Shown here one piece after another: positions 40,174-41,077 of a stretch of 44,266 bases of DNA. The notes below the pieces were generated by a model. The model made no database searches. It was not told where the DNA came from and was given only the letters and a program-made list of their open reading frames with translations. Origin of the DNA: a virus. The translations under genes and the position numbers were made by a program. Location: the IMG/VR virus record IMGVR_UViG_3300045988_092115, positions 1 to 44,266 of that record; one strand, 5' to 3'. Numbering within the stretch: position 1 is the first letter of the stretch; every line of letters starts with the position of its first letter.

Positions 40174-40476
40174 ATATCCCCGTTAAATAGTGATTTAAAT
40201 GGCTTTCACGTATACGCTAATATTTCTGATCTAGGGCTTTCAAACGGTGTTACAGTGAATGATATATTGTCAAAGATGCCTGAACCATCAATGGGATTCT
40301 TTTATGTTTTTGATAATAACATCAGTAAGCTCCCTATAACAACACAGGCGAATTTAATAATATTTAAGAGCGGATCTGCAAGTGATATCGTCGAACGTTC
40401 AATCTGGACAGGCGAAACATATTTTGGAAAATACGGAGGTGCTAATAAAGTGGAATCTTGGGTGCTGATAAAGTGA
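40174..40476 (+). other. Silent, start-less alternative tail-fibre C-terminal cassette (cassette B)
   Basis: Open frame from 40174 (after a TGA) to the TGA at 40474-40476: ISPLNSDLNGFHVYANISDLGLSNGVTVNDILSKMPEPSMGFFYVFDNNISKLPITTQANLIIFKSGSASDIVERSIWTGETYFGKYGGANKVESWVLIK. It has no ribosome-binding site or ATG at its head. It lies tail-to-tail, 4 nt from the stop of 40481..41077. Confidence 0.7.
40187..40199. repeat. Inverted repeat, left copy (atagtgatttaaa)
   Basis: Perfect reverse complement of 40776-40788. Flanks extend the match to 17 of 19 positions. Confidence 0.9.
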
Positions 40477-40480
40477 TTTA

Positions 40481-41077
40481 TTAAACCATTTTTTCAAGCT
40501 GAACATGATAACTCGTCCATATATTACGATTACCATCATAATAAACTAGAATACGTTCAGAAGCATCGTACTTAGTATATTCCTGTATTAAGTATTGAGA
40601 TCCGATACCAACACTAAGATAAACTTTCATTGTAAAAGCAAATTTTAAAGGGCTATTTTTTAATGTTTCAGCATTAGTGTTGCTTGCACAATAATAATTT
40701 CCAGGAGTTAAATAGGTGTGCATATCTGAATTATTTGGAATCAATGTTTGGTTTCCACTCAAAGACCACATATTCTTTAAATCACTATATAGCGAGTTGA
40801 CACCACTGGATAAGTCAGTCATGCCACCGGTCAGCGCCTTGGTTCCTACCTTTGTTTCAGCATCCGAAAGGCGGCTTTCCTGGCCCTGTATAACATCAAC
40901 AGCAGCATTTAACAGATTTGTCACTCTCATTATTCCCTGTTCCGCGTGATTAAGGTGTTCAGCGTCAATGTCTGGTTCTGAGTTGTCAACATACTCGGTG
41001 GGGACATATGCTTCTATTTTTTCAAGCGCAGATGCAAGTGCTTGTGCTACAGGTAAAGATACGTTTTCTTCACTCAT
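40481..41077 (-). CDS. Tail fibre / receptor-binding protein with knob-like C-terminal tip (cassette A expressed)
   Basis: 198 aa. The N-terminal constant part contains DIDAEHLNHAEQGI. The C-terminal LTPGNYYCASNTNAETLKNSPLKFAFTMKVY...IWTSYHV resembles pyocin/phage fibre knob domains. Confidence 0.7.
   Translation of the reverse strand: MSEENVSLPVAQALASALEKIEAYVPTEYVDNSEPDIDAEHLNHAEQGIMRVTNLLNAAVDVIQGQESRLSDAETKVGTKALTGGMTDLSSGVNSLYSDLKNMWSLSGNQTLIPNNSDMHTYLTPGNYYCASNTNAETLKNSPLKFAFTMKVYLSVGIGSQYLIQEYTKYDASERILVYYDGNRNIWTSYHVQLEKMV
40776..40788. repeat. Inverted repeat, right copy (tttaaatcactat) inside the fibre gene
   Basis: It encodes Y-S-D-L-K at about residue 94-98 of the 198-aa protein. 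Confidence 0.9.

Follow-up and report, generated by a model that had tools for sequence, protein, structure and literature searches.

The window analyzed here is the whole 44,266-nucleotide (nt) IMG/VR virus record IMGVR_UViG_3300045988_092115, and the element of interest lies at the end of its tail module, where the last tail-fibre gene is met tail-to-tail by a silent open reading frame (ORF) with the makings of a second fibre tip. The window is a complete circular genome (positions 1-99 and 44168-44266 are identical, a 99-nt terminal overlap), and alignments to two related loci, L013 and L040, cross the circular junction without a break (loci are given L numbers and proteins P numbers throughout). 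A blastn search of GenBank phages in distant mode found no close relative.

The expressed gene, on the minus strand, encodes a protein of 198 amino acids (aa), and its stop codon lies 4 nt from that of the silent plus frame, which is open from 40174 to its stop at 40474-40476 and has no start codon ahead of a GTG at 40255. Both frames carry the 13-mer ATAGTGATTTAAA, at 40187-40199 on the plus strand and as a perfect reverse complement at 40776-40788; the inverted repeat extends to 19 nt (40181-40199 and 40776-40794, with 17/19 positions, or 89%, complementary), and 576 nt lie between the arms. The core begins at codon position 2 in both copies and encodes x-S-D-L, and a 15-mer built on it has matches with zero or one mismatch only at the two repeat arms in the whole 44-kb window. 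The silent frame (ISPLNSDLNGFHVY...WVLIK) reads ISPLNSDL followed by NGFHVYANISDLG... across the left arm, and the expressed gene reads ...GVNSLYSDLKNMW... across the right arm, i.e., ...GVNSLYSDL followed by KNMWSLSGN.... The repeats, their codon phase, the coordinates, and the stop spacing are all as the initial annotation gave them from the sequence. It also held the two tips to be alike in length and hydrophobic pattern; tip A (98 aa) and the alternative tip, alt (92 aa), are indeed alike in size, but no sequence similarity between them is detectable. The segment contains these two tip cassettes only, with no chaperone gene. At the 3' end of alt lies a degenerate site-like sequence, ATAAAGTGATTTA, which is probably the relic of a direct site that once separated tandem cassettes; in L040 this position is taken by a good site, ATAGTGATTTAAC, which overlaps the stop codon of alt and precedes another cassette.

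Inversion isomers of the fibre locus

The initial annotation proposed that inversion between the repeats exchanges the fibre tip, and related contigs do carry the inverted junctions, with breakpoints in the 13-nt core. A search with the silent cassette returned 34 proteins, two of which (P0017 and P0029) are the window stalk fused in frame to the silent tip, with ...LNS(D/N)L joined to (N/K)GF(H/R)VY at the fusion point; together with P0251, these are the predicted fusion proteins found. The flanks of L010 are collinear with the window (43418-41584 at 97% identity and 40199-39988 at 100%), whereas window 40182-40794 (613 bp, 99.5% identical) is opposite in orientation to these flanks, and the overlapping ends of the alignments are the repeat arms. 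In L010, tip A adjoins the outer flank attttgaatatccccgttaa and the stalk continues into the alt tip, so the crossover lies inside the 13-nt core. The flipped state is also present in L013 (a 45-kb contig, 94-95% identical throughout), L001, and L022; homology of the window with L001, L010, and L013 breaks exactly at the right-arm site (site 3), and in the aligned loci the outer flanks are constant in position while the cassettes are exchanged. Mis-assembly is an unlikely source of the flipped arrangements, because the 13-19-nt repeats are shorter than the assembly k-mers, whose sizes (k141 and k119) are taken from the contig names. Judged from these contig comparisons, the segment is an invertible tail-fibre tip switch.

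The repeat and the cassettes are conserved in relatives, with site, reading phase, and cassette retained in >40 loci. The alt tip is fused to a long upstream frame in 12 loci and is silent in ~22. Looking for decay of the silent cassette, we found it stop-free in 34/34 copies (25 of them distinct), with a median pairwise ratio of nonsynonymous to synonymous substitutions (dN/dS) of 0.33; by these measures, the silent cassette is maintained and is not decaying.

The fibre gene is named 'Baseplate component' in nr, and one alternative tip on the window stalk matches the Pfam family Gp53-like_C, a tail-fibre C-terminal domain; Pfam and PHROGs gave no informative family for the fibre or for either tip. 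An AlphaFold model of the alt tip is a small alpha/beta domain (predicted local distance difference test [pLDDT] score of 89, predicted template modeling [pTM] score of 0.82) with no significant match in the PDB and weak matches in BFVD that are consistently to baseplate or tail-fibre proteins (best E 7.7e-3, TM score 0.69). The model of the full-length fibre (pLDDT 40) is unusable.

Table 1. Features of the integrase, attachment, and fibre region of the window
Feature	Position	Strand	Details	Basis
Tyrosine integrase	38389..39471	+	360 aa	PF00589 4.5e-10; phrog_1 integrase 1.9e-46
Site C	39466..39487	-	third site-like sequence; overlaps integrase stop codon	repeat finder; mismatch search
attP	39534..39760	+	arm-type direct repeats TGCAACACGAAATGCAACACGA at 39534-39555 and 39739-39760; tRNA 3'-end core 39586-39623; hairpin 39633-39673	repeat finder
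Recombination site 2, left arm	40181..40199	+	core 40187-40199; head of silent cassette	repeat finder; L010 comparison
Silent alternative tip cassette, alt	40186..40476	+	96 codons plus stop; without own start codon	ORF; homologs
Degenerate site-like sequence	40468..40480	+	3' end of alt	92% complementary to 40778-40790
Distal tail-fibre/receptor-binding gene (putative role), currently expressed	40481..41077	-		ORF; last gene of tail module
Tip A	40484-40775 plus stop codon	-	last 98 residues	part of 198-aa gene
Recombination site 3, right arm	40776..40794	-	core 40776-40788; in frame at stalk/tip junction	repeat finder; homology breaks
Constant stalk	40789-41077	-	residues 1-~97	part of 198-aa gene

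Shared sites and tips, and a linked recombinase

The locus belongs to a large and apparently undescribed family of tyrosine-recombinase shufflons in Lachnospiraceae-type phages; a literature search for a shufflon in Lachnospiraceae phages found no description of one. At least four unrelated fibre families have the core ATAGT(G/A)ATTTA, encoding (N/Y)-S-(D/N)-L, at the point where stalk meets tip; 61 distinct instances of the site were counted over all loci, and both window sites conform to the core. Related loci hold three to four cassettes and sites, and a given outer flank is linked to one cassette in one contig and to another elsewhere, a permutation of the shufflon type. At least 15 unrelated tips are found on the window stalk, joined at ...GVNSLYS(D/N)(L/F); in most of these fusions the stalk is ≥93% identical over the aligned half, and most are on 43-45-kb contigs, a combination that points to a single phage species. 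Tip A is fused to at least seven different stalks, two of which bear Phage_tail_fib or Mtd_N domains.

The site-bounded 609-bp module (40186-40794) is 93-99.5% identical in phages with otherwise unrelated flanks, with the homology ending at the outer edge of the sites, and the window alt and tip A are 93-99.5% identical to copies both in unrelated phages and in phages that carry a recombinase we call Rec-S. Over the 6.4 kb that end at site 3, L040 matches the window at 100% and 99.94% identity (99.94% over the last 3.5 kb), and past site 3 it has an 87% alt variant in the expressed position, a direct site on the alt stop codon, and two further cassettes. Such near-identity up to the site, followed by different cassettes, argues for recent exchange at the site in a lineage lacking Rec-S.

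Rec-S emerged from Pfam searches of 75 ORFs from unrelated loci. The initial annotation saw no dedicated invertase, which is correct for the window but not for the system, in which phages with the same sites and cassettes encode Rec-S inside the shufflon. It is an Xer-like tyrosine recombinase of ~331 aa (PF00589 at ~1e-37, with a SAM-like N-terminal domain) that NCBIfam and PDB searches group with XerA, XerC, and XerD and not with Rci or FimB/E. The gene lies between sites in L009, L016, L020, L027, L029, and L031 (Pfam), with L025 and L028 added by tblastn, and it is carried inside the shufflon on a ~1.2-kb unit bounded by two outward-facing sites; its orientation relative to the fibre gene varies between loci, which places it within the invertible DNA. 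The Rec-S family numbers 4298 proteins at E <= 1e-30, one of them named by its source as from a Lachnospiraceae metagenome-assembled genome, and the homologs with 80-89% identity are always encoded between the distal fibre gene (with a small reverse ORF) and the holin/endolysin genes. Site and enzyme vary together, the site being ATAGTGATTTAG(G/A) with an 89% homolog and A(A/T)ATAGGGATAT with an 80% homolog. One identical Rec-S protein, P0035, adjoins fibre genes of 205 aa, 474 aa, and 203/197 aa belonging to two stalk families, and the 474-aa fibre family also occurs without Rec-S, in L008. Rec-S was not found in the window (best tblastn E 1.6; the single PF00589 protein is the integrase), nor in nine other loci of the window's phage species.

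Some further observations concern cassette and enzyme distribution. The longest P0035 contig is <2 kb in 65 of 75 index blocks and often ~1.2 kb, i.e., the gene plus two sites; short contigs of this kind would fit assembly breaks at variable neighbors, but contigs in the collection are short anyway, so their length is no evidence by itself. In the 474-aa-fibre family, two two-cassette loci lie 3-5 kb apart (L002, 6104-6776 and 11928 onward; L008, 2346-3012 and 6002-6603), one at the fibre gene and the other a stalkless 'storage' locus directly downstream of the endolysin terminator; L002 has alt at the storage locus, and L008 has it at the expression locus. L013 (5607-6077) and L017 (4320-4792) have an extra ~470 nt between the silent-side site (flank type tttgatccatcagcccctaa) and the region of a small neighboring gene, ORF86 (see below); we considered this insert as a Rec-S remnant and rejected the idea, as it has no similarity to Rec-S.

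Candidates for the enzyme that flips the segment

We propose that 40181-40794 is an invertible module with two cassettes, belonging to a tyrosine-recombinase shufflon by which the fibre varies its receptor-binding tip, and that it is flipped in trans by a Rec-S-type enzyme, an account we think reasonably probable. Recombination between the two inverted sites would flip ~0.6 kb, with the crossover within the S-D-L-encoding core, which is in the same frame in both copies; the ~97-aa stalk would lose tip A (KNMWSLSGN...) and gain the alt tip (NGFHVYANISDLG...) in frame, and the displaced tip would be silent because it would have neither promoter nor start codon after the flip. The cognate enzyme of the site family would be the 331-aa Rec-S, whose unit the window genome would have lost or never had, and a prophage sharing its host would provide a Rec-S-type enzyme in trans; the tips would determine host range. 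Because cassette content differs between near-isogenic genomes that lack Rec-S, the enzyme seems to be available to the lineage, and we infer that a co-resident Rec-S prophage, as the most economical source, is the most likely one. One metagenome yielded both an orphan-module phage (L008) and a Rec-S phage (L009), a co-occurrence that fits loosely with action in trans.

We speculate further that unrelated phages of one host group may share a library of tips, the mobile 1.2-kb Rec-S unit acting in trans on co-resident site-bearing genomes both to flip cassettes and to swap modules between phages. Paired crossovers at two sites would exchange modules, a natural form of recombinase-mediated cassette exchange, and orphan loci such as that of the window would be clients of an enzyme encoded by a competitor. 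This broader proposal is tentative, and we regard it as possible without leaning toward it.

Several points limit this account or the evidence for the inversion itself. Shuffled windows would by chance contain ~0.7 perfect 13-nt inverted repeats within 1 kb each; the repeat by itself therefore has no significance, and the case for it depends on the comparative evidence. That evidence compares contigs, as distinct from reads showing both orientations in one population; the flipped relatives are close but not isogenic (the L010 stalk allele is 84% identical, and L013 is ~94% identical overall), and exact predicted inversion junctions built from the window's own flanks were not found in IMG/VR. 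Action in trans is purely our inference, and a catalytic role for Rec-S is suggested by its association with the sites and by site co-variation; the sites flanking Rec-S are mostly ATAGTAAT, whereas the window has ATAGTGAT. A site-like sequence on the integrase stop codon keeps the phage's own integrase alive as a candidate. The receptor-binding or adsorption role of the fibre is predicted from gene position and from weak fold and domain matches, and searches of genome contigs for a host came back empty both for the alt-tip alignment and for the 317-aa tail protein encoded upstream.

If the locus were instead a frozen relic, the flips would have taken place in Rec-S-bearing ancestors, or the cassettes would have arrived via inter-phage recombination, and nothing would flip the segment now. 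Such a state could arise, since the window has no recombinase in cis for the purpose, derivatives that have lost Rec-S by deletion evidently occur (L021 compared with L016, and L008 compared with L044), and the flipped relatives are not strictly isogenic. A relic would not be expected to have both arms intact with a perfect 13-nt core, nor a silent cassette whose 34 copies show purifying selection; a single stalk with at least 15 tips, and an L040 genome that is 99.94% identical up to the site and different beyond it, further indicate recent recombination in genomes without Rec-S. We consider the relic unlikely.

The initial annotation suggested that the tyrosine integrase has a second activity as an invertase on the fibre sites, besides attP, and the evidence now goes against this. 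Its premises hold for the window: the integrase is the sole PF00589 match among the 64 ORFs and the sole recombinase in the genome by Pfam; no resolvase is among the Pfam families listed for those ORFs (25 of the 39 matched); and tblastn with Hin and Gin found no match in the window or in 35 loci. The gene ends at 39471, ~0.7 kb from the segment, with attP between it and the cassette. Rapid cassette turnover in sampled genomes of the window's species, all of which lack Rec-S, would also suit an integrase, as would site C, which coincides with a perfect 15-nt copy of the site, CGTTAAATAGTAATT, at the same position in L013 (6802-6816). In L032 (690-740), where the attP/ORF86 block has the opposite orientation to that in the window, the attP-side flank of site C is joined to a good site and the alt cassette, so this junction has recombined with a cassette site at least once. 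The window protein is nonetheless a canonical phage integrase. Arm-dependent integrases normally require arm sites and accessory factors, and the att core, GCAGGTTCAAATCCTGTTGCCCCGA, has no similarity to the inversion site. L017 and L023 retain the inversion core with integrases of only 70% and 36% identity, respectively, and lack site C. Unrelated phages that have no window-integrase homolog within 5-6 kb carry identical sites and cassettes; moreover, the sites are linked to, and co-vary with, the unrelated recombinase Rec-S. The retention of the core despite divergent or absent integrases, and the linkage and co-variation between site and Rec-S, make the integrase an improbable catalyst. Site C itself is likely a recombination scar or a weak site, at a position held elsewhere by Rec-S (as in L039).

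Several readings of the attachment region were rejected. A match of site C to the plus strand (three mismatches) is an effect of the dyad symmetry of the site, and L013 sets its polarity as the same as that of site 3. L032 is not a single inversion of the window, since its left end has neither int nor site. The att core does not share GATTTAAAT with the inversion site; the DNA of the core reads GGTTCAAATCC. Separately, L023 (1147-2259) has the 36%-identical integrase at the window int position, followed by a different tRNA-like core, with the fibre module and sites kept, and its int-att module looks to have been replaced.

A chromosomal host recombinase, of the XerC/D type or a master invertase such as RecV or Mpi, is still less probable as the enzyme that inverts the segment. 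Because Rec-S is itself Xer-like, a host Xer-family enzyme could plausibly read similar sites, but the site is not uniform and co-varies with the phage-borne Rec-S, and the conserved 11-nt core is, we presume, unlike a full dif-type site. The searches of genome contigs found no host genome; trans-acting global invertases are, for their part, an established idea that has been invoked for a bifidophage inversion without a recombinase (PMC6109161). Finally, a chance repeat beside a decaying pseudogene or spurious plus frame, for which the shuffled-genome expectation of ~0.7 and the missing start codon would speak, is refuted by the comparative data, given the conservation of site, reading phase, and cassette in >40 loci and the existence of natural isomers and fusion proteins.

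The host range of a temperate gut phage is usually treated as a fixed property of its genome. Here, one phage species has at least 15 interchangeable tips on a single stalk, and, at a defined site of 11-13 bp, a 0.6-kb module moves from one unrelated phage to another with hardly any change. If an Xer-like recombinase does act in trans, then the host range of Lachnospiraceae phages would be a population-level, rapidly switchable trait that short-read assemblies systematically misrepresent, and the pair of site and enzyme would be a ready tool for exchanging receptor-binding protein (RBP) tips in phages whose hosts are gut anaerobes that are hard to engineer. The locus also provides a concrete case for asking whether a phage can depend on the recombinase of another prophage.

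Elsewhere in the genome, several genes deserve mention. ORF86 (window 39848-40108, minus strand), between attP and the silent cassette, encodes an 86-aa protein rich in His, Asp, Cys, and Gly (MEKEMNIQEPLHRDCAPHDAAHCDINDHH...) with no Pfam or PHROG match; its GC content is 53%, compared with 37% in the adjacent fibre locus and 45% genome-wide, and it lies where lysogenic-conversion genes are typically found. Conserved copies are present in L001, L013, L032, L040, and L042, with a longer frame in L013 (138 aa from an upstream TTG) and two 86-aa genes in L040 (6722-6982 and 7771-8031), only the second of which is within the stretch aligned to the ORF86 region. The tail genes upstream of the fibre, at 41089-42042 and 42039-42446 (minus strand), have a common paralogous N-terminal module of ~134 aa (42% identity, E = 1e-30), and in L001 and L010 the C-terminal part of the 317-aa upstream tail protein is replaced. 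A tRNA-Met gene lies within the structural region at 11254-11326 (minus strand), and a HerA-like helicase is encoded at 28934-30499. The gene for a PDDEXK-like nuclease (30496-31233, minus strand; DUF3799, 1.4e-62) adjoins that for a 321-aa protein (31255-32220, minus strand; phrog_3657, 1.7e-108), and the two may form a phage recombination pair; short-homology recombination by this pair was set aside as a source of the fibre rearrangements, since the breakpoints are site-precise in many unrelated backbones.

Comparison with known inversion systems

In Mu G, P1 C, p15B Min, and e14 P, as in the window, inversion swaps the fibre C-terminus on a constant N-terminus encoded outside the segment, in frame through the crossover. 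The switches of this Din family use a serine recombinase, 26-bp sites with a 2-bp crossover, an enhancer, and Fis, and carry tail-fibre assembly genes in the segment; their cassettes are common to unrelated phages, and their invertases complement each other in trans. Papers by Sandmeier from 1992 and 1994 are cited for the shared cassettes and the complementation. The features particular to these switches, from the serine recombinase, 26-bp sites, enhancer, and Fis to the assembly genes in the segment, are absent from the window. The initial annotation described the locus by the logic of Mu G, P1 C, and shufflons; fusion to a constant stalk stands, but the features that define Mu G and P1 C do not, and with a tyrosine recombinase, short asymmetric sites, and no chaperone the logic is closer to that of the Rin and R64 shufflons.

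The Rci shufflon of R64 and other IncI plasmids is similarly a multi-site, tyrosine-recombinase-driven swap of adhesin C-terminal segments, with a conserved core and one conserved arm in its sites. It differs in its target, the plasmid pilV pilin, and in its unrelated site sequences; NCBIfam gave no Rci-type match for Rec-S, only Xer-type matches, and nothing comparable for the window integrase.

Although the initial annotation knew of no such arrangement for tail fibres, both a phage tyrosine-invertase shufflon of RBP tips and a recombinase-less inversion attributed to an enzyme in trans are on record (PMC6109161). The first is the Rin shufflon of Bifidobacterium and Eggerthella prophages (Mavrich et al. 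2018, PMC6109161; PMC8778435). Rin loci, like those described here, combine a constant N-terminal RBP part with alternative, barely similar C-terminal cassettes of ~95-100 aa, and have short asymmetric repeats in the gene and before each cassette (8-11 bp for Rin and 11-13 bp in the window family). The same repeat in the same reading phase ahead of each dissimilar cassette, as found in the window, is also a feature of Rin, as are a direct site at the 3' end of the expressed cassette (seen here in L040) and a recombinase that is Xer-like, without an arm-binding domain, and distinct from the phage integrase; Rec-S and Rin are likened here by this Xer-like description and not by sequence comparison. 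In both systems, inversions were inferred from genome comparison with breakpoints in the repeats. The differences are that Rin phages infect Actinobacteria whereas those described here are Lachnospiraceae-type Firmicutes phages; that the site sequence and the stalk and tip families are not the same; that Rec-S is inside the invertible region on its own site-flanked unit; and that the window genome has no dedicated Xer-like recombinase at the locus.

The second precedent is bifidophage Bb423phi2, in which a structural gene has its 3' end exchanged by a ~500-bp inversion at a short repeat, with no recombinase beside the inverted segment, and for which an invertase acting in trans was proposed (PMC6109161). 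The window resembles it as a simple inversion of a structural-gene 3' end without a flanking recombinase. The Bb423phi2 case is a single comparison of two prophages at a gene of unknown function and has no candidate enzyme (PMC6109161), whereas the window family offers a candidate cognate enzyme and many isomers. What is of interest here is the orphan status of the locus, the size of the pool of tips and stalks, and the movement of a site-bounded module between unrelated phages.

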